A stretch of 64,000 nucleotides of DNA from Stegostoma tigrinum (Eukaryota), in NCBI RefSeq assembly GCF_030684315.1, contig NC_081364.1:56276588-56340587 (forward strand). The letters are read 5' to 3'. This document shows positions 1,521-58,078 of the stretch, piece by piece. Below the pieces are notes generated by a model. That model saw only the letters and a program-made list of their open reading frames with translations, was not told the DNA's origin and ran no database searches. The position numbers were made by a program, and so were the translations under genes. Each line of letters begins with the position of its first letter. The first letter of the stretch is position 1.

Positions 1521-1714
1521 TGATAATGGGAACTGCAGATGCTGGAGAATCCAAGATAACAAAAAGTGTGAAGCTGGATGAACACAGCAGGCCAAGCAGC
1601 ATCTCAGGAGCACAAAAGCTGACATCAGATGAAGGGTCTAGGCCTGAAATGTCAGCTTTTGTGCTCCTGAGATGCTGCTTGGCCTGCTGTGTTCATCCAG
1701 CTTCACTTTGTTAT
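1521..1714. mobile_element. Penelope pseudo-LTR-derived fold-back mini-insertion (family A)
   Basis: About 70-bp inverted arms around a decayed hammerhead-like spacer. Direct repeat CACTAATCAAGCCAG at 1506-1520 and 1715-1729. Sequence matches the 3' end of the Penelope copy at 33090-33178. Confidence 0.9.
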
Positions 1715-4835: not shown

Positions 4836-5420
4836 CAATGCTGGTGAGGCCACACCTGGAGCACCATGTACGGTTTTGGCCTCCTTACTTGAGAGAGGAT
4901 GTGTTGACACTGGAGGGAGTGCACAGGAGATTCACTAGGTTGATTTTGCGAATTAAGAGGGCTGGCTTATGAGGAGAGATTGCATGAACTGTGACTATAC
5001 TCATTGGAATTTAGAAGAATTAAGCGAGGGTAGTCTTACAGAAATGTATAAAATTATGAAGGGACTAGATAAGATAGAAGCAGGGAGGTTGTTTCCACTG
5101 GTGGGTGAAACTGGAACTGAGGGGACATAACCTCTAAATAAAAAGGGGAATAGGTTTCGGACCAAGTTGAGGAGGAACTTCTTCATGTGAATCTGTGGAA
5201 TTCCCTGTCGAGTGAAGCTGTTGAGGAGGCCTTTTTGAATGTACTTAAGGCAAAGATAGATACATTATTGAACTGTAAAGGAATTAAGGGCTATGGTGAG
5301 CAGGGGTGGAAGGTAGGGGTGCAAAAGGATCTGAGTCCACAAAAAGATCAACCATGTTCTTATTAAATTGCAGAGCAGGCTCGATGGGCCAGATGGTCTA
5401 CTCCTGCTCCTGTTTCTTAT
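4836..5420 (+). mobile_element. CR1 (HER1-like) LINE 3' fragment
   Basis: LVRPHLE...LEGVHRRFTRL...YSLEFRR RT C-terminus, and 3'UTR ending CTACTCCTGCTCCTGTTTCTTAT. Paralogous to 56233-57186. Confidence 0.9.
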
Positions 5421-10705: not shown

Positions 10706-12159
10706 GCCTGCTCCCACCAGAATTTTCTGACAGCTGATGGAAGCACGTTTTCCTTAAACCTCTTTCCTCCCCTCCCTGCCATTGACCGTGCCCCCTCCAT
10801 TTGTCCCATGGCTCCTGGCTACTTCTTTTTGTCACTGCCTCATCTCCTGTACTCCTACTCCTCCACCTCACTCATATCATGATAACTCCAGCTCTGTTCC
10901 CTTGTGTGCCCCTCACCATCCCCTTCTTCCTTCCACCCCTACTCTCCATTCCTAAATGTACAGACCAACAACACAGGACATTGGAAATGCAGCAGGATGC
11001 CGGTTGTGCGACTCCACAACTTCAACGTCAGCTTTCCTGATCCTCGGCCTGGTGTTGGTCACCCAGCTCTACACCTTGCTATCTTCAATCTAAATACATT
11101 CCTAAAGTCTCCTATTGACTTCCGCACAGAACAAGAGTCCCTTTCATTACTTAAACTTGTGCAACATGCAACACAGCAAGCAGGTACCAGTTTGTTCAAC
11201 TGAAACAAACACGACCAATGTTCGTAAAGCCTAAATTTTATTGATCTGGTTTCCAGTTAGGTGTAGAGAAATGCACAGCGCTTTGGAAGTCAAGATTGTT
11301 TCACAAGAATTTTACCAGCTCACCCCACTGCAGGATCTGCTGCTCATAATGAAAATTGATGCCACCACCTTCTTTAAATGAGGGAATCAAAGGTGTGTCA
11401 TGTGACACAGGAAAACCACTTCCTGCTCAAACTGATGGGCATCATCTTGTAGTTAACAAGATTTAGTTTATTGCATATTAACTAGTTATGGGTTACCTTG
11501 ACATGCCAGACAGCTTTACTGAGACATTGATAAGACCAGGCGGCAGGACTCAATCCTAAAACATTCTGACCCCAAGCCCACATGCCATCATTTAGGTGGG
11601 TGATGCTTATTGGCTCTCTCTGGTATTAACCCTTTTGAACTGACTTATCCAACATCAACATATTTTGGTTGAGAGCCAAGAACTCAATGCAAATCACTGA
11701 GCTGCCTGTTTGGAACTCAAGTAGTTCATTTCACTTACCCCTCCATCTACAGAAGAAAAAGCTATGAGGAGTGCATGAAAATATTTTCAGTTTCCTTTCA
11801 AATCGTCTTCAAACTAAAAGTCAATGTTTTGGACAGATAAATCATGGGTATAATAGGCACAAGTTGCAATTGGTTAAGGACTGCACAGAACTAAAAACAA
11901 AAATGCGTAAAAAGAACTTTGTTATTCTGCGAGAAGTAGACCTGTTAATTTTAATTAAGGAAGTTGCTTGGAAATTGCTATCATGAGACATGAGGCTCCA
12001 ACACAAATATTGCAAATTTTTTCTATGTTTCATTTTGAACATAGGTAGATCAGAAGTGTGTTAACAAGCTAAATTTGATACAAATCTATCCAACAAAATA
12101 GAATGATGGATCATCTAGTGTGTGATCAGAGGGGTACGTTTTAAGGAGAACAGAACACA

Positions 12160-14611: not shown

Positions 14612-14826
14612 ATTTGAAGATTGCCAAACAGAAAATTATTTTGTTTACCCATTTTCTTGTCAACCATATTTCTAAAAAAAGTGTTCTGAACTGCAAAATC
14701 TGAAAAACACTGGCTGACACAACCCCAAACCTGTTTCCTTAACTATTCATCACTTGTTAGGCTACATGGACTTTTCTTGGAAGGAACTTATGTAAAACCG
14801 TGAAACACATCAAAATGTCTAGCCTA

Positions 14827-15152
14827 GATAATAAAATGTGAGGCTGGATGAACACAGCAGGCCAAGCAGCATCTCAGGAGCACAAAAGCTGACGTTTCGG
14901 GCCTAGACCCTTCATCAGAGAGGGGGATGGAGGGAGGGAACTGGAATAAATAGGGAGAGAGGGGGAGGCGTACCGAAGATGGAGAGTAAAGAAGATAGGT
15001 GGAGAGGGTGTAGGTGGGGAGGTAGGGAGGGGATAGGTCAGTCCAGGGAAGACGGACAGGTCAAGGAGGTGGGATGAGGTTAGTAGGTAGCTGGGGGTGC
15101 GGCTTGGGGTGGGAGGAAGGGATGGGTGAGAGGAAGAACCGGTTAGGGAGGC
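14827..15152 (-). mobile_element. 5'-truncated Penelope (family A) 3'UTR/pseudo-LTR insertion
   Basis: Near-identical to the reverse complement of about 32845-33178. Exact 12-bp TSD ATGTCTAGCCTA at 14815-14826 and 15153-15164. CpGs retained, so probably young. Confidence 0.95.
14889..14920 (-). ncRNA. Minimal type I hammerhead ribozyme motif in the Penelope pseudo-LTR
   Basis: Minus strand reads CT CTGATGA A GGGT CTAG GCCC GAAA CG TC AG: intact CUGAUGA and GAAA core, stem II GGGU/GCCC, palindromic loop-less helix III (ACGU), and a GUC cleavage triplet. Confidence 0.7.
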
Positions 15153-15689
15153 ATGTCTAGCCTACTTTGGTCTTACAGGAAGATTACAAAGAAAACACAG
15201 GCTTTCACCCCCACATGCTTCATCACTGTATGGTATTTGTTTTCAGAAGGGAACAATTGCTCCTAAACTATTGAAATGGAGATTTATTCTAAGAATGCAT
15301 GAACACACCAGCAAATCCAATTTTTCTGCGACTTCTAACATTTGAAGAAATTAAAGCATTCTTTAGCTCTCTAGAAGGCATTTCAGAACAAAATTAAATC
15401 TTTGTGTTAATATCTGTTTGCTATTGGATTTTTGTTGGAAATTGAAGGAACGAGTGGAATGCTGAAGAGACTAAACAGGCAGGGCGATGATGGAGTGAAC
15501 GAATAATCTCAGTTCCAGTATTTTTGTTCTCAACAACTTTTAATTTTGCATTGACCCAAGTTTTCACACCTCACTCTGATCCCATACCTCTGCTTCATTG
15601 TTATCTCAGTTTGAGATTTACCTTCTCTGCTTTGGAGATGTTCAAAATTATTGGAGATTTTAATACCGAATATCTGGCAGAGGGAGCTG

Positions 15690-17119: not shown

Positions 17120-17245
17120 TTATGGATACTGGAAATTTGAAATAATAGCAGAAAGTGGTGAAATTAGGCAGCATGTCCAGCAACATCTGTGGAGAAGAAC
17201 CAGGGTTTATGTTTCAAATCAAATACTACTCTTCTTCCAAAGCTT
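17120..17245 (-). mobile_element. Old Penelope-like pseudo-LTR fragment (family C)
   Basis: GATACTGGAAATTTGAAATAATAGCAGAAAG...CATCTGTGGAGAAG...TTTCAAATC...CTCTTCTTC, homologous to 21251-21427 and 46100-46255. Confidence 0.55.
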
Positions 17246-19551: not shown

Positions 19552-19674
19552 GATAACGAAATGTGAGGCTGGATGAACACAGCAGGCCCAGCAGCTGCTG
19601 GGCCTGCTGTATTCATCTAGCCTCACATTTCGTTACCTTGGATCCTCCAGCATCTGCGGTTCCCATTATCACTG
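19552..19674. mobile_element. Penelope family A fold-back mini-insertion with a zero-spacer palindrome
   Basis: About 43-bp arms meeting at CAGCAG|CTGCTG, tail TTGGATCCTCCAGCATCTGCGGTTCCCATTATCACTG. Exact 14-bp TSD AATCAAAGCACTAA at 19538-19551 and 19675-19688. Confidence 0.92.
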
Positions 19675-21250: not shown

Positions 21251-21427
21251 CAAAACACGGGAAATTGCTGGAGAATCTCAATGGTTCTGATGGTGTATGT
21301 GGAGAGAAAGCAGGGATAACATTTCAGATCCAGTGACCTATCTTCAGCACATTCTGGACCTGCTGAGTTTCTCCAGCTATTGCTTGTTTTTCTTTCAGAT
21401 TTCCAAATCCACTGTTCTTTAGCTTTT
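21251..21427. mobile_element. Old Penelope-like family C fold-back insertion with a hammerhead-like motif
   Basis: Arms ATTGCTGGAGAATCTCA / TGAGTTTCTCCAGCTAT. Minus strand CTGAAGA T AGGTC ACTG GATCT GAAA TGTT. Direct repeat GTTCAGTTT at 21242-21250 and 21428-21436. Confidence 0.65.
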
Positions 21428-24178: not shown

Positions 24179-24669
24179 TGGCAACAGCAGGCTGCCAGCA
24201 GCGACAACAAGGACTGAGTGAGATGTTCATCACTCACTTGGGAGAATGACCTCCCCTCTGAAGGTGCTTTCTAACCAGATTGGTTGGCATCTATTGCATC
24301 ATACTGAGCCTGGGAGCAGGCAGGAATGTGAGGAAGGCAGTTATGAATTGTGGGAGGAGGGAAGTTGGGGCTTTGGGCTAGGAGGGTTAAAGACGCTGAG
24401 GGAGGAGGGCAAAGAGATAGGCTTTGCAGTGCAGCCAGGAGGGCAGGGGGGGATGGTATCATCTGGGTGGTGATTGGTACATCCCCAATACACAAAGATC
24501 ACCACTCAACAATCTGTCCCCAGTTCTTTTCTGCCATTTTACAAACCCTTTCTCAATTTTAAAAAAAGACCATTCCATCATCCTCCCCTTGCTAACCATG
24601 CTGTGACATGGATAACACAACACTTGGATCATTTGAGCCATTATCAAGCTCAATTGAGCCGTTATTGTT

Positions 24670-25268
24670 CAGTGCATTGATTATAGGAGTTGGGAAGCCT
24701 TGTTTTATGCTGTCCAAGGAATTGGTTAGGCCACTTTTGGAACATGGGTGTGCAGTTTTAGTTACCCTGCTATAGGAAGGAAGCTGTGAAACTTGAAAGA
24801 GTTCAGAAACGATTTACAAGGATGTTGCTAGTGTCACAGGGTTTGAGCTATAGGGAGAGCCTGAGTAGGCTAGGGCTTCTTTTCTGAAATCTTGGAGGCT
24901 GAGGGGTGACATTATAGAGGTTTATAAAATCATTAGGGGCATTGATAGGATGAATAGCCAAGGTCTTTCCCAAACTGACCCCCTGAAGAGCATCCCACCC
25001 AAACAAGAGGGCATAGGTTTAAGGTGAGAGGGGAAAGATTTAAAAGGAACCTAAGGGGCAGAAGGTGGTGCATGGAATGAGCTGTAGAAGAAGTGGTGAA
25101 AGCTGGTACAATTACAACATTTAAAAGGTATCTGGATGGGCACATGAATTAGAAGGATTTAAGAGGATATGGACCAGATGCTGGAAAATGGGGTTAGATT
25201 TATTTAGAATATCTGGTCAGCTTGGAACGAAGGGTCTATTTCCATGCTCTACATCCCTGTAACTCTAA
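24670..25268 (+). mobile_element. CR1 (HER1-like) 3' fragment
   Basis: LVRPLLE...YRKEAVKLERVQKRFTRML...LRGDIIEVYKII, then the 3'UTR. Confidence 0.88.
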
Positions 25269-28200: not shown

Positions 28201-29107
28201 CTGTTAACTCTGATTTCTCTCCACAGACACTGCCAGAACTCCTGAGCTCTTCCTGCAATTGTATTTTTGAGCTTAATTTACGTGTCTCATGCTCCCGCAG
28301 TTTCCAGAGTGCCTGGCTGATAATGATGGTGCATGCATCATGGATCATGCTTAATCAAATCACAAGTTGTTTAGATCTCTAAACCTATTAGATCTAGTCA
28401 CAGATCCTACTGATCATTTCCACAAGGTTACCACATGGATTTTGAATGCTTGGGTATCTTGACTGTGAAGTAACAGGAAGTAATCAAAGGGAATTGCAAT
28501 GTTAAAACAAGATAATTGAAAGCTTTTGAAGACAAATATTCGCTGTTTCTGACATCTTATAAACTTGTTTCAAATTACACCTTTTAATATCAAGCAATGT
28601 TATTGATCATTTTTAGTGCATTTGAATGAAAAATGATGACAACATTTTATGGTATGGGAGGTTTTTTGGAGCATTTGTAAACATTTCCCAATTTGCTAGA
28701 CTAAGGGAACAGAGAATTCCTTGTGCCACTGTACAGACTGGGAACTGGAAATACTGGGTGGTAAATAAGCAGCATAATAGTCAATATTGCTGTTAAACTT
28801 TGCCTTACTGTTCAATATGCTGTCCTTTAAATAAATGTTAAGTTTATCATATCTTGCTCTGTGTTAACTGCTAGTGTAATAAAGTTTTCTACCCATCTGT
28901 ATGTAAAGAAGTTTTCCTGACAGGAGCTAACCAGATATTTTGCTCCCAATTCAGCTCAGTAATGTGTATCTACTCAAGTGGAGATAGTTATCCAACACGG
29001 ACTTTCACACAACTCATAAAAAATGTAAGTAGCTATTAAGTTCTATGCAATAAACCCATTCAAGATTGTTAATCTGCCTTCTTCCAAAGGTATCTGGTGG
29101 AGATCCA

Positions 29108-31879: not shown

Positions 31880-34030
31880 CTTATCATAGAAAGTGGGACC
31901 AAGAATAGGACATTTGGCCCTTCAAGCCTGCTCCACTGTTCAATGTGATCCTGGCTAATCCTCTGTCTCAGTACGATGACCTGCTTTCTACCCATACACT
32001 TGATGCCTTTAAAATCTTAAAATAAAGCTATTGCCCCCCACAGTGGTCGAGAACGCCCTTGACCGCATCTCCCACATTTCCTGCAACACATCCCTCACAC
32101 CCCGCCCCCGCCACAAATGCCCAAAGAGGATCCCCCTCGTTCTCACACACCACCCCACCAACCTCCGGATACAACGCATCATCCTCCGACACTTCCGCCA
32201 TCTACAATCCGACCCCACCACCCAAGACATTTTTCCATCCCCACCCCTGTCTGCTTTCCAGAGAGACCACTCTTTCCGTGACTCCCTTGTTCGCTCCACA
32301 CTGCCCTCCAACCCCACCTCACCCGGCACCTTCCCCTGCAACCGCAGGAAATGCTACACTTGCCTCCTCCCTCACCCCTATCCCAGACCCCAAGATGACA
32401 TTCCACATTAAGCAGAGGTTCACCTGCACATCTACAATGTGTTATACTGCATCCACTGTACCCGGTGTGGCTTCCTCTACTTTGGGGAAACGGCTTGGGG
32501 ACTGCTTTGCAGAACACCTCCGCTCGGTTCGCAATAAACAACTGCACCTCCCAGTCGCAAACCATTTCCACTCCCCCTCCCATTCTTTAGATGACATGTC
32601 CATCATGGGCCTCCTGCAGTGCCACAATGATGCCACCCGAAGGTTGCAGGAACAGCAACTCATATTCCGCTTGGGAGCCCTGCAGCCCAATGGTATCAAT
32701 GTGGACTTCACCAGCTTCAAAATCTCCCCTTCCCGCACCGCATCCCTAAACCAGCCCAGTTTGTCCCCTCACCCCACTGCACCACACAACCAGCCCAGCT
32801 CTTCCCCTCCACCCACTGCATCCCAAAACCAGTCCAACCTGTCTCCGCCTCGCTAACCTGTTCTTCCTCTCACCCATCCCTTTCTCCCACCCCAAGCCGC
32901 ACCTCCATCTCCTACCTACCAACCTCATCCCACGTCCTTGACCTGTCCGGCTTCCCTGGACTGACCTATCCCCTCCCTACCTCCCCACCTATACTCTCCT
33001 CTCCACCTATCTTCTTTTCTCTCCATCTTCGGTCCGCCTCCACCTCTCTCCCTATTTGTTCCAGAACCCTCACCCCATCCCCCTCTCTGATGAAGGGTCT
33101 AGGCCCAAAACGTTAGCTTTTGTGCTCCTGAGATGCTGCTGGGCCTGCTGTGTTCATCCAGCCTCACATTTTATTATCTCTGTCTCTTGAATATGTTCAG
33201 TAACTCAGCCTCCTTTGCATTCTGCGGTAGAGAATTCCACAGGTTCAGTGCCCTTCCAGTGAAGACATTATTTTTTCATCTCGATCCCAGATGGTCTATC
33301 CCAAATCCTGAGACTGTGGCTCCTGGTTCTAGAAGCCTCAACCCCAACCCCCGACCTCACACATTCCAACTACCAATAAAGGCAAACATTTAGTCTATCC
33401 GGAATTGTATACATTTTAATGAGCTGCCCTCTCATTCTTCTAAACTCCAGTGAATACAAGTCTAATTGAACCAAGCTCTCTTTAAAGGACAATTTTGCCA
33501 ATCCCACTGTTAGCCTAGTTAACCTCTGCTGCACTCCCTCTATTGGCAAGTACATCCTTTCTTAGGTATGGAGACCAAAATTTCACTCAGCCCTCCAAGT
33601 ATGGTCCTTCCAAAGTCCTGTATAACTTTAGTAAGACATCGCTACTTCTGAACACAAATCCTCTTGCAATGAAACCCAATATATCATTTGTCTTCCTCAT
33701 TCCTTGCTGCACCTGCTTGTTTGTTTTCCTTTATTAGTATACAAGGACACCCAGATTCCTTTGTATTTCCACATTTCTCAAAATATCAACATTTAAATAA
33801 TGCACTTGTTTTGTGTTTCTCACACCAAAGTACACAACTTTATATTTAACAATGTACTGCATCAATCATGTGTTTGCTCACTCACTCAACTTATCTAAAT
33901 CACCTTGAAGCCTCCTTAAATCTTCCTCACAATTCACATTCTGCAAAGTTTTGTCGTCTCAGCAAACTGGGAAATGTTGCATTTTGGTTCACTTAACCAG
34001 GTCATTTATAAATGTTGTGAAAGCTGGGGA
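31880..34030 (-). mobile_element. CR1 3' fragment split by a Penelope insertion (CR1 parts about 31880-32030 and 33179-34030)
   Basis: Minus ORF 33370-33555 contains IEGVQQRLTRL...LYSLEFRRMRGQLI. The 3'UTR continues on the far side of the Penelope copy. Confidence 0.85.
32031..33178 (+). mobile_element. 5'-truncated Penelope-like retroelement (Neptune-type): RT C-terminus, Cys linker, GIY-YIG endonuclease (frameshifted), 3'UTR/pseudo-LTR
   Basis: KRIPLVLTHHP...FPSPPLSAFQRDHSFRDSLVRS, Cys linker CNRRKCYTC, RLGDCFAEHLRSV...VANHF...RRLQEQQLIFRLGALQPNGIN. About 39-bp tandem units at 32749-32850. Decayed hammerhead at 33085-33116. Confidence 0.92.
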
Positions 34031-37539: not shown

Positions 37540-38030
37540 ACATAGGAGTTGAGACATTATATTCATGTTCTGTAGGATGTCAGTGAGGCCTCTTCTAGCG
37601 TGCTGTGTCTGGTTCTGGACACCCTGTTATAGGAAGGATATTAACAAGCTGGAGACGGCTCAGAAGAGATTTACCAGGATGTTGCGGGTTATGGAGGGTT
37701 TGAGTTATAAGGAAAGGCAAGACAGTCTGGGACTTCTTTCACTGGAGCATAGGCGTGGGGGATTTCAAGAATAGAGGACATATTTTTAAGATGAGAAGAG
37801 AAAGATTTTAAAAAAGACATGAGAGGCAATTCTTTTTACATAGTGGTTCATGTGTGGATTGAACTTCCATTGGAAGTGGTATATGCAGATACAGTTACAA
37901 CATTTAAGACATTTAGATAAGTGCACAAATAAAAAAAAAGTTTGGAGCAATATGGGACAAACACAGAAAGGTTGGCTTAATTTAGTTAAAGATTATGATC
38001 GGCATGGACTGGTCAGACTGTACGACCCTA
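37540..38030 (+). mobile_element. CR1 3' fragment
   Basis: ORF 37565-37774 contains VRPLLACCVWFWTPCYRKDINKLETAQKRFTRML. Confidence 0.88.
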
Positions 38031-40445: not shown

Positions 40446-40586
40446 NNNNNNNNNNNNNNNNNNNNNNNNNNNNNNNNNNNNNNNNNNNNNNNNNNNNNNN
40501 NNNNNNNNNNNNNNNNNNNNNNNNNNNNNNNNNNNNNNNNNNNNNNNNNNNNNNNNNNNNNNNNNNNNNNNNNNNNNNNNNNNNNN
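40446..40586. other. Assembly gap (141 N)
   Basis: Run of n characters. Confidence 1.
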
Positions 40587-40619: not shown

Positions 40620-40805
40620 CACCACCAGGAAGTGCTACACTTGCCCCCACACCACCTCCCTCACCCCCATCCCAGGCCCCAAGATGACTTTCCATGTTAA
40701 GCAGATGTTCACCTGCACATCTGCCAATGTAGTATACTGTATCTACTGTAACCAGTGTGGCTTCCTCTACATTGGAGAAACCAAGCAAAGGATCAAGACT
40801 GCTCA
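40620..40805 (+). mobile_element. Penelope GIY-YIG endonuclease fragment
   Basis: RKCYTCPHTTSLTPIPGPKMTFHVKQMFTCTSANVVYCIYCNQCGFLYIGETKQR, with an intact VVY...YIGET signature. Paralogous to about 32345-32500. Confidence 0.9.
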
Positions 40806-42077: not shown

Positions 42078-42682
42078 AGTTATAGAGCCATTAAGCATGC
42101 AAATCAAGCCTTTGGACCAACCAAATATTTGCTTCATGCTGACAATAATCCAAACTAAACTAGTTTCCCCTACCCACTTGGCCCATATCCTTCCAAATAT
42201 TTCTTATTCATGTACTTACCTGAATGTCTTTTACACATTGTAACTATATCTGCATCCATCACTTCCTGTGGAAGTTCAATCCACACATGAAACACTCTCT
42301 GTATAAAACAAATTTCCAATAATGATTTTTTAAAAATCTTTGTCTTCTCACCTTAAAAATTCGTCCCTTGGTTTTGAAATCCCCAACCCTGGAGAAAAGG
42401 CACCTGCCATTCACCTTATCTATACACCTCATGATTTTATAAACCTCTACAAGATCACCTCTCAACCTCCTGAGCTCCAGGGAAAAAAAAATGTACCAGC
42501 CTATCCAGCCTCTCCTTATAACTCAAACCCTCCATGCCCGGCAACATCTTGTTAAATCTCTTCTGAACACTCTCCAGCTCAATAATATCCTTTACACAAC
42601 AGGGAAATCAGAACTGGACACAATATTCCAGAAGAAGCCTCACCAATGTCCTATAAAGCCTCAACATGATGACCTAACTCCT
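42078..42682 (-). mobile_element. CR1 3' fragment
   Basis: Minus ORF 42259-42465 reads RGDLVEVYKIMRCIDKVNGRCLFSRVGDFKTKGRIFKVR. Confidence 0.9.
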
Positions 42683-43164
42683 ATAAAATAAATGCATTGT
42701 CCCCTTGACAGCATCAGGGTGGAAAGGCCATCCATTCCTTCAGCAGATGGCACTGTTTTGTTTTGGTGTCCCAGGATGTCCTCAGTCTGTGCCCGTACTG
42801 GATTCAGTCATCTGAGGAAATGACAGTGAGAACAGTACATCCTGAGCTTCTTAAACAACCTCCACATCCTGAAGGGGATCCTCTATTGTGGCTTCTCCAT
42901 GTGGAGGCTACTTGGCAACCACTGGAGGTTACTGTTAATCCTGGGCTAGGACCCAAGGAGGATGTCTTGGAATAGTGCATGGGATCCTCTCGGAGTCTGA
43001 CGTCACTGTCAGTGATGACAAAAAGCATTTTCCCATTTCGGAGGTGAACCAGCAATAGAAGCATCACTGTATGCTACTTTCAGTTTTGTTGCTTAACTGA
43101 GCTTTAAGTCCAGTTTTAAAGCCAAAGCCTCTTTTGCAAACAATGAGATAGGGAATAAAAGAAA

Positions 43165-43394
43165 CCTGTCTGTCCCCTCTCACCCTATCTTCTCCTTTAT
43201 CCATCTTCTATCTGCATCCCCCTGTCTCCCTATTTATTTCAGAACCCCCTTCCCCTCCCTCATTTCTGAAGAAGGGTCTAGGCACTAAACATCAGTCTTC
43301 CTGCTCCTCTGATGCTGCTTGGCCTGCTGTGTTCATCCAGCTCCACACTGTGTTATCTCAGATTCTCCAGCATCGGCAGCTCCTGCTATCACTG
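43165..43394 (+). mobile_element. Penelope 3'UTR/pseudo-LTR fragment including the tail
   Basis: CTGAAGAAGGGTCTAGGC...CTGCTCCTCTGATGCTGCTTGGCCTGCTGTGTTCATCCAG...TTATCTCAGATTCTCCAGCATC...TATCACTG. Confidence 0.88.
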
Positions 43395-44012: not shown

Positions 44013-44157
44013 GATAACAAAGTGCGGAGCTGGGTGAACACAGCAGGCCAAGCAGCATCTTAGGTGTACTCCTCTGATGCTGCTTGGCCTGCTGTGTTCA
44101 TCCAGCTCCATACTTTTTTATCTCGGATTCTCCAGCATCTGCAGTTCCCATTATCTC
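44013..44157. mobile_element. Penelope family A fold-back mini-insertion
   Basis: About 50-bp inverted arms plus tail. TSD TCATTTACTTCAC(T/C)GT at 43997-44012 and 44158-44173. Confidence 0.9.
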
Positions 44158-44704: not shown

Positions 44705-45592
44705 ACGCATTAGTGAAAAAGGTTTTCTTGGATTATTGAGGAATCTTGATGAAATGGGTCAATGGACTGAAAAATGGCAGATGGGGTTCCATCTGGATAA
44801 ATGCAAGGTACTGCATTTTGGTACAATAAACAAGGGTAGCACTTACACAATTAATGATAGGGCTTGGAGTAATGTTGTAGATCAGAGGGACTTAGGAACT
44901 CAGGTACATAATTCTTTGAAGCTTGTGTCAGTTATAGACAGAACGGTTAAAAAGGCATTTGGTACACCTTGCCTTCATTGCTCAGTCCTTTGACTATCAG
45001 AGTTGGCAAGCCATGTTGAGGTTACATAGGACGTTGGTGAGGTATCTTCTAGAGTACTGTGTCCAGTTCTGGTCACCCAGTTATACGATGGATATTATCA
45101 AGCTGGAGAGGGTTTAGAACAGATTCAACAGGATGTTGCTGGGTATGGAAAGTTTGAAATATTAAGAAAGGCTGGATAGGCTGGAACTTTTTCCACAGGA
45201 GCATAGGAGGTTGAGATGCAACCTGACTGAAGTTTATAAAATAATGAAGGGTATAGATAGAGTTAATGGTAGGTATATTTTCCCTGGGATGGGGAATTTC
45301 AAGATTAGGGGGCACATTGCTGAGGTGAGAGGAGAGTGATTTTAAAAATGATTTAAAGGGCAAATTTTTTTACACAGAGGGTGGTTTGCATGTGGAGTGA
45401 ACTTTCAGCACAATTTGTAGATGCAGGTACAATTACAATCTTCAAGAAACATTTGGATAAGTACATGAATAGGAAAGATTTGGAGGGATATGGGCCAGGA
45501 ACAGGCAGGTGGGATGAATTAAGTTTCGGGTTATGGTAGGTATGCACTGGTGAGATTGAAGGGTCTGTTTCCATGTTGTATAACTCTATACT
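44705..45592 (+). mobile_element. CR1 (HER1-like) RT C-terminus and 3'UTR
   Basis: WTEKWQMGFHLDKCKVLHFG...QRDLGTQVHNSLK. 3' end TCCATGTTGTATAACTCTATACTCT. Confidence 0.92.
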
Positions 45593-46099: not shown

Positions 46100-46255
46100 C
46101 CAAAAGAAGGAACCGTGGAAGCTGGAAATCTGAAATGAAAACAGAAATTGCTAAAGAATAACTCTGAAGAAGCTTGCTGAACTTGAGACTCTAACTGTTT
46201 TCTCTCCATAGATGTTGCCAGACCTGTTGGGTTACTCCAGCAATTTCTGTTTCTC
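46100..46255. mobile_element. Old Penelope-like family C fold-back
   Basis: AAACAGAAATTGCT / AGCAATTTCTGTTT inverted arms around a decayed CTGAAGAAG hammerhead core. Confidence 0.6.
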
Positions 46256-49200
46256 TCTCATTCTAGTATGATTTGGTTTCATTTGTCAAACACACTGCCA
46301 ATATATGATCTGAAAGCTGCTGTATTATGTTAGCTCATATAACATATATCACAGGGATTGGGCTCTGTTGAGTTACATGTCTTGGAGTTTATTAACTACA
46401 CTAATTACTCATATAAATATTATGTTACAGGCTTAAATAATATCCGCTTTGTGCTCAGTGATGTATCTATAAATTGCATACACATTACTCACTAACATAC
46501 CAATCTGATTCAATTACACTGACAGTCATCTTTATAATGGAATGCCATATATTATAACGTCACTTAATTAACTTAAATATATTCTTCCTATATGGTCTGG
46601 AATTCATGCATTAGCACAACAAGGTCGTCCCTCTGTAAAGTGTTGAGGGTGGGGATAAAAGACAATACATTCCGTAGTAGCTTGCTGGTCCTGCCTGCCC
46701 CACATCTGAGGAAACAATGGATTAAATTGGAAATCTAAAGACACGATATCTCATGGTCAAGCAGTAAATATGACTGAAACAGAACTTGTGCATTAAAATG
46801 CTGGGAGAAACTTAAGCATCTTTAATCGGCCTGTCCAATTTTGTTATAAGTTTGACCAATGTTGACTTTATATTTTAATTTTATATTTGTTACGCTGCCT
46901 CAATCATTTCTCTGACATATAGAATTAACTAGGTCACTTATCATCTTTCAACATCTGGATGTCAAGTGGTAGAGCTTGAATTGCTTCTGGCTTCAAAATA
47001 AATAACATTTTTACGCAAATTTAACTCAAACAATGAAACTCGGAGAATTTTTCTTCATTTCTAATAAGCCAGCCTCTTGTCCCTGTTGTAAGTAAATGAC
47101 CGAAGCTCTTTTGTTGGCAGTATTAAAATAAATCATAAATAAACAAATCTGAGACATACTTCATCAGTAGTTGATCATTCTTCATCCGTTATTTTACCTC
47201 ACCAAAAATAACCCAAACTGATAGATGCTCCAGGTATCACTGACACATTCATAGACTGGCATCACTGTAAGGACTGTGCTATTGTTTATTTGTTCTCACA
47301 GTTACTTTTTAGTCCAGACAGGATTACGCCAGGTAAAGTTTAAACCGAAAGCAATAGCCTGAGGTCTGAGTGTATATCTGAAAAATGTGTGGATCTATAA
47401 ACTGTCCATCAGATCAAAGTGCCCTCCACTAACTTTCTTTTCCACAGTAAATAGGATTATAGAAACCAAAATGGATCCACAAATTACTTCAGTCACTGAA
47501 GCTTAAGAGTCATTGGACAAAAAAGAACAGCTCAATAAATAAAGCTGCAAGCCGCCATCAAGCTGCATTCTTTTCCATCAAAGTCTTTTTTTTCACCATT
47601 CAGTAATTATGCCTCTGAAAAGCACACAATAGATTTGATATAACAAGCTCTTCATATCTATAAAAAAGAAAGCATCCCAGCATCAGGCTCTCAGCAATGG
47701 CTGTTTGACCCCTTATTCCACAGCTTATGTATGGTGCAAATCCAAATAGCAATTATTCCAAGCATTCTAAGCTCAGTGGAGTTCTAATTCAGTGTCAGTG
47801 ATTCTGCATCTCTGTTAAATTTGGCATTTATCAGGCTCAATTTCATCAAAATCGTTGCACTTCATAATGAATTCACACTCCTTCCCCAAACTCAAACTTA
47901 TTAACCTGAAACATGCTCCAGTCAGGAAGTTGAATCACTGCACCATCACCGTTGCCAGTTGTCGCTAAACAAACAGAATGCACCTGATGTAGCCTAAGCT
48001 CTGCAGTGAGTTGGGAAGCTAGATGATGCTATTAATCTGCTTGAGTAAGCATCGCACATTTCCCAGAATGGACTGCATTGAAATAAATTTCAACCTCGAA
48101 CGCAACCTCAGCAAGCAATGTCAGACATATTTACACAAAACAGCACAGTGTGTTAGGTTTGTTTTGAACGAAAACAGAAGTTGCGGGTTATATATTTGGC
48201 AGTGTACTTGAATGTTTACAAAGTGGAATTTGAGTCAGATGCTTTATGATTTGTGGAGGTACTATTTTATTACTCTGTAGACAAACAAGGGAAATGGGTT
48301 TCTATGTGTTTTCCCACATGGCAGATGGAAATAGTGTCAAGACTGTGCTTGCTACCTACCTTGCTGCACACGTGACGTCTTCACCCATGGTAAACTCACC
48401 TAGTAATCAGGAAATCTTCACCAATGGTAAGTTCTGATCTTTGATGGGTTCTTTTAGAAGTGTTTTTCATGTAAAAGAAGGGAACTTATAAGGATACCAA
48501 CCCATATTATTATCCTCCTTATAGAAATCAGATAAAGAACAGGGCAGTAGAGGCTACAACTAGATTGCTGACCCAATTCTACTTTGCTCAGTACATCAGC
48601 GTGAGATCAAAGATGATGCGTTGTAGTTTGAAAAGTTGGAAGCAAAACAGTAAGGTTAAGTATTAAGGTCTCATAGATTTTACAAAATATATATAAATCT
48701 ATAAGTTGGATGTAATTATTACATGTAATGCTAAGTATACTACCAGGAATGATGCACTAACTGTTGCGTATACAAGCTCAAATTGGATATTTCTTGACCA
48801 GAATACTGGCTTAAATGAAATATTTACTGACAAGCGTATTCACTGGTATGGCGCATTGCCTTGCTCATGCATCTGTGAGAATGTGACAATGTGGAGTACC
48901 ATTGGAATATAAGCGCCATTCAGCCCATCAGAAGCCTCTGTCATTTCTTGGTAGCTTTCAGAAATGTACCCCTCCCAACAGACACTTAATTATAGAATTT
49001 GTTGAGTGTGTATTGACATGTTGTTAGGTATCCAGCAGGTATTGACTCCAATTTGCGAGAAAATGCAACACTCATTCTACTAGAAAACACTGAAATACAG
49101 AATAAAAATTTTAAAATGTAATGGTCCTGATTTTTCAGTAGCAGTACGGACAAAATTGCCATTATACCTCTAGCTGATAGCAATTTTTGGAATTGAGACC

Positions 49201-50094: not shown

Positions 50095-50230
50095 ATTCCT
50101 AAGGAGAGTCACTGGACTCAAAATGTTAACTCTGTTTTCTCTCCATGGAGAGATGTACTGAGTTATTCCAGCAATTTTCGTTTTTGTTTCAGACTTGCAA
50201 CATCTACAGTTCCTCCTTTTATTTTGGCTT
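50095..50230 (+). mobile_element. Old Penelope-like family C pseudo-LTR fragment
   Basis: GAGTC ACTG GACTC AAAATGTTAACTCTGTTTTCTCTCCA...CCAGCAATTTTCGTTTTTGTTTCAGA. Confidence 0.65.
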
Positions 50231-50719: not shown

Positions 50720-52835
50720 CAATGAATACTACAGTCTGGCAGCCATTACAGAGACATGGCAGCAAGCTGGCATGGGTTGGCACCTGAATCTTGAAGAGTA
50801 CATGATATTTAGGAATGACAGACCATTCGGAGAATGTGCAGAAGCAACTCTGTTGGTTAATGATGGAATCAGCACAATAGGTAAAGATGACTTAAGTTCT
50901 GGAAATCAGGATGTGCAAACAGTTTAGGCAGAAATCAGGAATGATAAAGGCAAGACACTTGCGCATGTGACATACAGGTCTCCTAACAGAAACTATATGG
51001 TCGGTAGAGCAAAAAGGAGGCAATAATGAGAGATTTTCAGAAAGATGCAACAATAATCCTGGTATATTGTAATCCACAGATCAATTGGAGAAGTCAGATT
51101 GATAAAGGTTATCTAGATGAAGAGTTCATACAACATTCTCAGGGTAGTTTTTTTGGAACACTAGGTTCTGGTACAGACCAGAGAGCAGGCTATACTAGAC
51201 CTGGGTATTGAGGAATAAGACAATAGTAACTAATGATCTCAATGTCAAGGCCACTCTAGGAAGCAGTAACTATAATATGATTGACTTTTACATTCAATCT
51301 GAGCGAGTGAATTTGAGTTCAAAACTATTTTTATAAATTTTAATAAGATAACGAGTGTGTGGAAGCAAAGCTAGCCAAGTTAATTGGCAAATTATGTTAG
51401 AGGATAGGTCAATATAGATGAGGGGGCAGATATTTAAAGGGATATTTCAAAAAACACAGAAGAGTTACATTTGAATGACTTAGGAAAATTCTGTGGTTGA
51501 GTAGAAATATTGACGACAGTATAAAACTGAAGGAAAAGGTATATAATTGCGCGAAGATAGGTAAATTCAGTAAATTGGACGGAATATAAAAAGCAGCAAA
51601 AACTGAGCAAAAATAGAGAGGGAAATATTCAAGTACGCGAGAGAGCTGACCAAAAATATATAAAAAAAGATAGTTAGAGAGTCTATAAATATTCAAAGAA
51701 TAAAAAATTTCCAAACTGAATTTAGTCCTATAGGAAGTAAGACTGAACTAATAATAGAAATAGTCAGGTAATAGTAACAATGAACAAGTATTTTCTTCAG
51801 TCAATCTTCAGTTGTTAGAGGAAATATCCCAGAATCAGCAATAAATCAGGAAATGGAAGAGAAAAGAAGAACTCAGGAAAATCACAATCACCAGAAAAAT
51901 GGTATTGAGTAAATTGTCACTATGAGTTGACAAGTATTTGAGTTCTGCTGGACTTCATCCTAAGGCCCTAAAATAAGTGGCTAGTGAGATAGTTGATGCA
52001 TCGGTTTTAACTTTCCGAAACTCCCTTGATTTGGGGACAGTTCTTAAACAACATAATTCCTTTATTCAAACAAGCCTTCTGGTCTTAGACATGAAGACAG
52101 AAAGCAGGAAGTTACAGTTAACCTAACATCTATCAGAGGGAAAATATCAGAAGCTATTCTTAAAGAAGTCACAATAAGGTACTTGGGTAAGTTCAAGGTA
52201 AAATCAGGCAGATAGTTTTATGAAAGGGAAATTGCAAATGCTGATAAACAAGTTAATCGAAAACCATGTCTGGAATACCAATACCTTGCATGGTATTTGT
52301 CATCATATTCAAAGAAGGATGTTCATATGATTTCATGTGGATTGCCTCATGATAAAGGTTTGAAAAGTTGTAATCACTTGGGTCTGGAAGAGGAAGAAGG
52401 ATTTTGTATGCAACTTGGAGGAACTCAGCAGGCCTGGCAGCATCTATGGAGAGAGAAAAACGGAATTGAGTTTTTGTTTTGAGCCCGAGATCCTGTGGAG
52501 TGTTGTTAGATGGTTAGGGAGAGAAAGACTCTCTTTAAAGATGTTTCACTGTCGAAAAATCAGGATTTTTTTTAGTTAAAGCAGATGAGGTAAATTTATT
52601 TTCCTCACACAGTCACGATTCTTCAGAATTCTCTCCTGAAAAGGTGCTGGAAACAGAGCCCTGGAATATTTTAAAATCAGAGGTAAGTAAATTCTAATTA
52701 AGCAAAGCATTGAAAGATTATTTGGATAGGCAGGAATGCAGGTATGAGGTTATAATCAGTTCAGCTATGATCTATGAATTGTGAAGAAGACTGGAGGAGC
52801 TAAATAATCTGATCCTGCTCCTAATTCATGCGTTC
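50720..52835 (+). mobile_element. Old CR1 ORF2 (AP-endonuclease to RT, internally deleted) and 3'UTR, with a small family C Penelope fragment at about 52410-52490
   Basis: AITETW endonuclease motif near 50740, GSSNYNMIDF (SDH-like) near 51260, GLHPKALK near 51950, and 3'UTR ...TCCTGCTCCTAATTCATGCGTTC. Confidence 0.75.
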
Positions 52836-56232: not shown

Positions 56233-57186
56233 TTAAGAACTAAGAGCAGGAGTAGGCCATCACCGCCATTTAATAAGATCATGGCTGATCTTTTTGAGAC
56301 TCAGCTGCACTTACTCGCCCGCTCACCATAACCCTTAATTCCTTTACTGTTCAAAAATTTATCTAACCTTGCCTTAAAAACATTCAGCGAGGTAGCTTCA
56401 ACCACTTCATTGGGCAGGGAATTCCACAGATTCACAACGCTTTGAATGAAGAAGTTCCTTCTGGCTTCTGTCCTACATCTGCTTCCCTTTATTTTGAGGC
56501 GATGCCCTCTAGTCCTGGTTTCACCTGCTAGCAGAAACAACCTCCCTGCCTCTACCTTACCTATTCCCTTCACAATGGTATACGTTTCTATAAGATCTCC
56601 CCTCATTCTTCTGAATTCCAATGAGTATAATCCCAGTCTACTCAGTCTCTCCTCACAATCCAACCCTCTCAACTCTGGAATCAACCGAGTGAATCTCCTC
56701 TGCACCCCTTCCAGCGCTGGTATATCTCTTCTCAAGTAAGGAGACCAAAACTGCACACAGTACCCCAGGTGTGGCCTCACCAGGACGCTATACAACTGCA
56801 GCATAGCCTCCCTGCTTTTTAAACTCCATCCCTCTAGCAATGACAGACAATATTCCATTTGCCTTTTTAATTACCTGCTGCACCTACAATCCTACTTATA
56901 GCAATTCATGCACAAGGACACCCAAGTCCCTCTGCACAGCAGCGTGCTGCAATTTTTTCTACCATTTAAAACATAGTCCATTTTGCTGTTATTCCTACCA
57001 AAATGGATGACCTCACACTTATCAACATTGTACTCCATTTGCCAGATCTTTGTCCACTCACTTAGACTAACTATATCCCTCTGCAGACTTGCAGTGTCTT
57101 CTGCACACTTTGCTCTACCACTCACCTTAGTGTCATCTGCAAATTTTGACACACTACACTTAGTCCCTAATTCCAAATCATCTATG
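56233..57186 (-). mobile_element. Relatively young 5'-truncated CR1 LINE (RT catalytic region to 3' tail)
   Basis: ORFs 56892-57176 (SKFADDTKV...WQMEYNVDKCEVIHFG) and 56301-56858 (LYSVLVRPHLGYCVQFWSPYLRRDI...TRGHRLKI...VVNLWNSLP), separated by frameshifts. Confidence 0.95.
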
Positions 57187-57979: not shown

Positions 57980-58078
57980 ATGCTCTGATGAGGAGTCATC
58001 TAGACTCAAAACACTAGCTGCTGTCTCTCCATGGATGCTGTCTGACCTGCTGTGATCCCCGACATTTTTGTTTTCATT
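57980..58078 (+). mobile_element. Penelope-like pseudo-LTR fragment with a hammerhead-like motif
   Basis: CTCTGATGA G GAGTC ATCTA GACTC AAAA, followed by CTCTCCATGGATGCTGTCTGACCTGCTG. Confidence 0.65.

Follow-up and report, generated by a model that had tools for sequence, protein, structure and literature searches.

Minimal hammerhead ribozymes (min-HHRs) of Penelope-like elements (PLEs) have been described by Cervera and de la Pena 2014 in the Xena, Poseidon and Neptune elements of fishes, lamprey, coelacanth, Xenopus and reptiles (PMC4209133). These motifs are unable to fold alone. Two copies pair via a palindrome, and cutting in vitro is low even then (PMC4209133). Dimer cleavage of PLE hammerheads is also credited to Lunse et al. 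in a review (PMC6765202), and the in vivo role of PLE hammerheads has been called unclear by Craig et al. 2021 (PMC8557442). One vertebrate PLE, the Poseidon element of Anolis (PAc), has been tested by Frangieh et al. 2024. The PAc hammerhead, within which the PAc ORF starts, cut only in the presence of added protein. Insertion in vitro did not need the ribozyme, and RNA-seq gave no reads with a start or end at the cut (PMC11167929). PLE-derived type I hammerheads are also found in the animal non-LTR retrozymes, which the available text of Li et al. 2026 defines as tandem repeats with the hammerhead in consecutive units; the same text finds repeats with PLE-related hammerheads in its single chondrichthyan genome (10.64898/2026.07.22.740005). 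Table S1 and Fig. S3 of PMC4209133 list no cartilaginous fish, and a description of the shark PLE family analysed here was not found in the open-licence literature searched, although the supplement of the 2026 preprint may name it.

The window analysed here, a 64-kb stretch of zebra shark (Stegostoma tigrinum) DNA, contains a motif of this kind on its minus strand at 14918-14889. The sequence-only reading had identified it as an intact minimal hammerhead on the sense strand of a PLE. Direct reading confirms the sequence as given there, and a position-based parse divides the motif as follows.

14919..14920, minus strand: 5' strand of stem I, only 2 bases able to pair.
14912..14918, minus strand: core box C3 to A9 (CUGAUGA).
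14899..14911, minus strand: extra A (14911) and 4-bp stem II with a 4-base loop.
14892..14898, minus strand: box G12 to A15.1 and ACGU palindrome (14895-14892); helix III would form only between two copies according to the dimer model (PMC4209133).
14889..14891, minus strand: C17 (14891) and 3' strand of stem I, with the predicted cut, placed from hammerhead numbering, between 14891 and 14890.

All core bases of a minimal type I hammerhead are present at minus 14918-14891, from C3 at 14918 to C17 at 14891, with zero core faults. The boxes CUGANGA, GAAA and NUH are intact, the extra base follows A9, and the G10.1-C11.1 pair opens a 4-bp stem II (G-C, G-C, G-C, U-G) capped by a CUAG loop. C15.2-G16.2 and U16.1 follow, and the 15.2-16.2 segment is palindromic with no helix III in the monomer. 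Stem I has only 2 bp, a point missing from the sequence-only reading; the published min-HHR consensus has 3 and some of its rows have 2 (PMC4209133, Fig. S3). A strict descriptor modelled on that consensus has one match in the window against 0.013 expected, the expectation being the mean of 300 Markov-2 random windows, 4 of which held any match. A looser pattern finds two matches (14918 and 21347) against 0.01 expected. The Rfam hammerhead families give no match at their gathering score across the window.

The motif agrees with the published min-HHR class in its core boxes, the extra base between 9 and 10.1, the G10.1-C11.1 pair and the palindromic 15.2-16.2 segment, as well as in its place in the 3' end repeat and the predominance of solo truncated copies (PMC4209133), and perhaps in its short stem I. 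Its assignment to the dimer-type PLE hammerheads with a palindrome, made from the letters alone, is supported, and the motif matches the consensus in Fig. S3 of that paper. With 4 bp in stem II and 2 bp in stem I, the shark motif falls at the short end of the published list, in which 2-bp stems I occur in a few rows, from Drosophila, Culex and Oikopleura. The hammerhead PLE class, known in bony fish, lamprey, frogs and reptiles, is hereby extended to a shark element.

The insertion that carries the motif, hereafter the 14889 copy, is bounded by a perfect 12-bp target-site duplication.

14815..14826, no strand: target-site duplication, left copy, 12 bp, identical to 15153-15164.
14827..15152, minus strand: 5'-truncated PLE end (part of the pseudo-LTR) of 326 bp, with the short 3' end and no tail.
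15153..15164, no strand: target-site duplication, right copy, 12 bp, identical to 14815-14826.

The insertion is a single unit between the duplications. It starts 234 bases upstream of the motif, which lies on the sense strand of the element, ~64 bases before its short 3' end, and it is 92% identical over 333 columns to 32847-33179, the final 333 bases of a longer copy in the window. Seven CpGs are kept in 327 bp, compared with a CpG observed/expected ratio of 0.25 for the window, and at two or more positions it differs from at least 97% of the family depth in public contigs (see below); 14931 is one of its private bases. With its perfect duplication, kept CpGs and these differences from the family, the 14889 copy looks fairly young, in line with the earlier description of its setting as a young Penelope end. 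The copy contains no ORF, and the window contains no second intact hammerhead copy. Identity with a non-LTR retrozyme has been set aside for the 14889 copy; as a monomer between duplications it departs from the tandem definition of those elements.

The longer copy places the motif in a recognizable element.

32030..33179 (5' boundary approximate), plus strand: longer, frameshifted, 5'-truncated copy of the same family as 14827-15152, with 74% amino acid identity to the shark proteins P0001 and P0002.

This copy consists of the C-terminal part of a reverse transcriptase (RT thumb), a CX4CxxC linker, a GIY-YIG endonuclease and the end repeat, which holds a hammerhead at 33087 with a G12 to A change. 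Its frames align at 74% to P0001 and P0002. In P0002, GIY-YIG passes the Pfam cut-off and RVT_1 falls short of it, with both domains in one protein. The RT core itself is absent from the window, and the order of RT and GIY-YIG is read from the relatives; the broken element frames of the window have no Pfam family match of their own. A protein search with one window frame gave 14 matches among 202 candidates, the named relatives being from zebra, whale and bamboo shark and one brittle star. No full-length element is among the copies seen. A separate fragment of the endonuclease region at 40626-40781, from the same PLE family (83%), adjoins an assembly gap at 40446-40586.

The linker bears on the clade. 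The pattern C-x4-C-x2-C is found in the 32013-32408 frame and in P0002, and a CX2-5CxxC linker is given for Neptune and Nematis, not for Penelope or Poseidon, in Craig et al. 2021 (PMC8557442). Poseidon has been dropped as a clade label because the linker is present, and the same linker distinguishes the shark element from PAc, a Poseidon element. Judged by this one motif, which does not separate Neptune from Nematis, the shark element likely belongs to the Neptune/Nematis group and would be of Neptune type. According to the same source, Neptune and Nematis share further features with the shark element, namely a C-terminal GIY-YIG after the RT, heavy 5' truncation, inverted 5'-truncated arms and a 30-40-bp tail. 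The PLE traits found in the window are 5' truncation, inverted arms, an optional 30-40-bp tail and target-site duplication. Copies end at either of two TTATC sites ~33 bases apart, ~64 and ~97 bases past the predicted cut. PAc also has a hammerhead near the repeat end and two internal reverse-transcription starts that define an optional tail, like the two TTATC ends here (PMC11167929).

Nine close-family end fragments occur at six loci in the 64 kb, and a second family is also represented. The further copies and motifs are listed here.

43175..43392 (3' boundary approximate), plus strand: older-subfamily copy with tail, 79% identical, with a broken hammerhead at 43266.
1521..1714, no strand: two element ends inverted head to head, with a 15-bp duplication; the core is scrambled where the arms meet, and the right arm begins one base ahead of it.
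19552..19674, no strand: head-to-head inverted pair of element ends without hammerhead, 14-bp duplication.
44013..44157, no strand: head-to-head inverted pair of element ends without hammerhead, 16-bp duplication with 1 mismatch.
57983..58066, plus strand: end fragment of the second family with a 5-bp stem II and two faults in the core; it matches the end of the first family with an nhmmer E of 2.7e-8.
50099..50129, plus strand: motif of the second family with a stem II of 5 bp, two faults in the core and stem I absent; linked to the family by inspection, with no nhmmer match.
21318..21347, minus strand: second-family motif, core intact, stem I 0 bp; a few bases upstream it meets an inverted end fragment.

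In the three head-to-head pairs the 33-base tail is on one arm only. Inverted end pairs of this kind, with duplication and tail, are an arrangement described for PLEs in the literature. The PLE link of the second family comes from the end sequence at 57983 and from inspection rather than from an adjacent ORF. Six related motifs had been pointed out besides the 14918 motif. Their places are about as stated, but the damage to them had been understated. The core is broken in five of the six, at 33087 as above, at 43266 (G12 to T, with a mismatch in stem II and the palindrome broken), at 1626 (U4 to A at the inversion junction), at 57985 (G12 to A and U16.1 to C) and at 50099 (G5 to A and G12 to A), and the sixth, at 21347, is without stem I. 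The same or related families have left more decayed end fragments at 46130-46260, 52416-52493, 17168-17215, 28219-28257 and 11024-11084; at 46162 an inverted tail is joined 2-3 bases before the core. Another decayed inverted-repeat element (1892-2077, 71% arm identity) has a core-like box at 1968 on the minus strand. Other interspersed-repeat fragments are found at 4841-5371, 24658-25177, 37542-38020, 42179-42699, 44971-45558 and 56265-56885, and the frame 56301-56870, which has no Pfam match, resembles what we take to be the end of a CR1-type LINE.

The proposal that stem II is compensated across families fares less well than the motif itself. A MAFFT alignment of the nine motifs was out of register; therefore, stem pairs were counted from the position-based parse. 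Two stem II families are present in the window, and between them one pair is changed on both sides (G-C versus A-U) and one on one side. The motif at 21347 alone adds an A-U at the first stem II pair. What holds of the claim is the pair of families, a single two-sided change that separates them and another found in one copy. These differences fit the known pattern of compensation and lend it weak support, the rows being too few for a test. Among the 40 of 85 variant rows listed from public contigs, which give single-site frequencies only, there is no compensatory change in stem II. In stem I, 14920 is changed in 99% of the X18 depth, which turns C-G into U-G, a one-sided change that keeps the pairing.

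The family has been followed in public sequencing contigs from 4 of 21 listed runs (X1, X9, X10 and X18, from four organisms), aligned to 14790-15180 at 80% likeness; contig depth is not copy number, and some of the counts are minima ("at least"). In X1, 181,730 contigs match the element end, so the family is very abundant. No copies were found elsewhere in metagenome or viral contigs, and full-length tandem elements bearing two pseudo-LTRs were likewise found in neither set. Within 14889-14918, the only changes among the variant rows listed (40 of 85) are four CpG transitions, with shares of depth of 12-16% in X1, 5-9% in X9 and 7-11% in X18. About half of the X1 copies would keep both core CpGs if the sites are independent, and a copy with an intact core is therefore not special.

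Two kinds of junction in these contigs concern the motif. Among the 24 of 801 loose-end rows listed, ends with long unrelated flanks pile up at 14919, one base before C3, in 929 contigs of X1 (compared with 1539 at the 3' end) and 218 of X18. The flanks are AT-rich, with a median of 255 and an agreement of 0.37-0.38. X9 and X10, both with few contigs, have no 14919 row among those listed. Three long X18 contigs (records 17, 19 and 20) match from 14826 or 14843 to 14918 or 14919 only. The older subfamily differs at 14920-14922 (at 14920 in the 99% of X18 depth given above), so that ends a few bases further upstream collapse onto 14919; this subfamily may supply most of the pile. No pile at 14890/14891 is among the same 24 rows. 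The second kind is the tandem joint. The top one among the 12 of 117 rows listed links the element end at 14826, extended by four bases from the start of the tail, to 14890, the base that directly follows the predicted cut. It has a depth of 545, with variants of 129 and 68, while other partners have 95, 60 and 57. Set against a single-copy depth near 20, this amounts to ~37 copies if read literally, which could be one amplified composite. The same four-base acceptor is also joined to 14880 and 14922, beside an ATT motif like the preference of the Anolis endonuclease, and X1 has tandem duplications of ~40 bases (14879-14922) that span the whole hammerhead and would put two motifs side by side.

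Folding predictions have been made for the monomer and for pairs of copies. In short constructs the predicted energies are -5.5 kcal/mol for the active dimer, -22.8 for two folded monomers and -38.0 for an inactive duplex, so that the active dimer comes out 17 kcal/mol less stable than a pair of inactive monomers. In these constructs, pairing between the core of the monomer and its cut-site strand has a predicted probability of 0.97-0.99; in a longer context other inactive folds are favoured over this core-blocking pair. The probability of stem II is ~0.9 in short constructs and at most 0.15 in the longer context. The gap of 34-54 kcal/mol obtained with long constructs is overstated, and the short ones are relied on here. 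Nearest-neighbour energies of this kind cover secondary structure only, leave out tertiary and protein effects and have no benchmark on a cutting motif. The folding z-scores of the nine motif regions are unremarkable (0.56 to -1.58). Stem II and its loop (14899-14910) are almost fully self-complementary, and a 12-bp inactive duplex is predicted between two copies.

Taken together, the motif is, with high confidence, a minimal type I hammerhead sequence belonging to the end repeat of a shark PLE that is abundant and probably of Neptune type, and the solo truncated copy at this locus a likely inert relic of insertion. By analogy with the published systems (PMC4209133, PMC11167929), two motifs in a tandem transcript of an active parent element would pair via the ACGU palindrome and the short stems I and cut after C17, probably only with the help of the element protein. 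Reverse transcription would start internally at one of the two TTATC sites, mostly on uncut RNA, and would usually stop early, which would leave short end fragments like the 14889 copy. The inserted motifs would then decay, first at the two core CpGs. On the same analogy, if the parent element uses the motif, it is likely for slow cutting within tandem transcripts, assisted by protein.

The sequence-only reading had gone further and proposed that a self-cleaving RNA is retained in several shark PLE lineages, where it would set the transcript ends, and that the 14889 copy may still cut. The intact core, the same layout kept by two families with different stem II sequences, and the 14826-14890 joint, the best supported of those listed, speak for this proposal. 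But the insertions have their 3' ends at the TTATC sites past the cut and not at the cut, and none of the nine mapped window copies has a 5' start exactly at the predicted cut (the nearest are 3 and 6 bases off). The loose ends listed show no pile at 14890/14891. In Anolis, insertion was unaffected by ribozyme mutants and no RNA-seq read ended at the cut (PMC11167929), and only one of nine Xenopus dimers cut in vitro according to the bioRxiv preprint (10.64898/2026.07.22.740005). The 14889 copy itself is solo, with no partner and no ORF, and its 2-bp stem I and predicted core-blocking fold suggest that it is likely inert. Given the large number of copies, pairing of transcripts in trans could occur. 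A naked monomer or dimer that fails to cleave would not be decisive, because the Anolis motif cut only with added protein. We regard the proposal as a whole as very improbable. Domestication of the motif as a host ribozyme acting on a gene at the locus is more improbable still, to the point of being negligible: an intact core within an isolated insertion could be read in this way, but the insertion is recent, with its perfect duplication and seven CpGs, and is one of very many, about half of which are expected to have kept the core CpGs. A search for host exons gave 0 Pfam matches in the 149 ORFs located between 1 and 35.3 kb, out of 350 ORFs listed for the window, so that no host gene fixes the strand of any read-through.

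The 14919 pile could instead reflect a non-autonomous mini-element of ~80-130 bp, made up of the hammerhead at its front and the tail, and copied from an RNA that starts at the 5' edge of the motif, the 14889 copy being a longer side product of the family. The pile in X1 and X18, the three X18 records and the window copies at 1625, 21347 and 46162, which start within ~5 bases of C3, would all be accounted for. The pile is nevertheless listed in two of the four runs only, the other two being the runs with few contigs, and the subfamily differences at 14920-14922 push nearby ends onto 14919. A hairpin of 30 bases starts at C3, and drop-off of the reverse transcriptase there could mimic the pile without any special RNA. 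The own start of the 14889 copy, 234 bases upstream, also argues against a mini-element, which we consider unlikely. Snap-back of the cDNA as the source of the 5' ends is not favoured, the DNA hairpin reaching only -1.2 kcal/mol.

Under the preferred reading, of a PLE hammerhead in a relic of insertion, the 14889 copy itself matters little, and its possible value lies in scale. A genome with so many copies would allow insertion starts to be counted relative to the motif and the cut. The insertion ends might even be a fossil record of hammerhead-shaped template RNA, with many mini-insertions from the 5' edge of the motif and a few tandem joints exactly at the predicted cut; we put this forward as a speculative idea that is probably wrong. 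If true, the insertion ends would be genomic evidence for ribozyme cutting in the germ line and for occasional copying of the cut RNA.

A further tract lies close to the motif. At minus 14942-14960, ~23 bases before the hammerhead, a pyrimidine tract ending in CAG is kept in three copies and resembles a 3' splice site.
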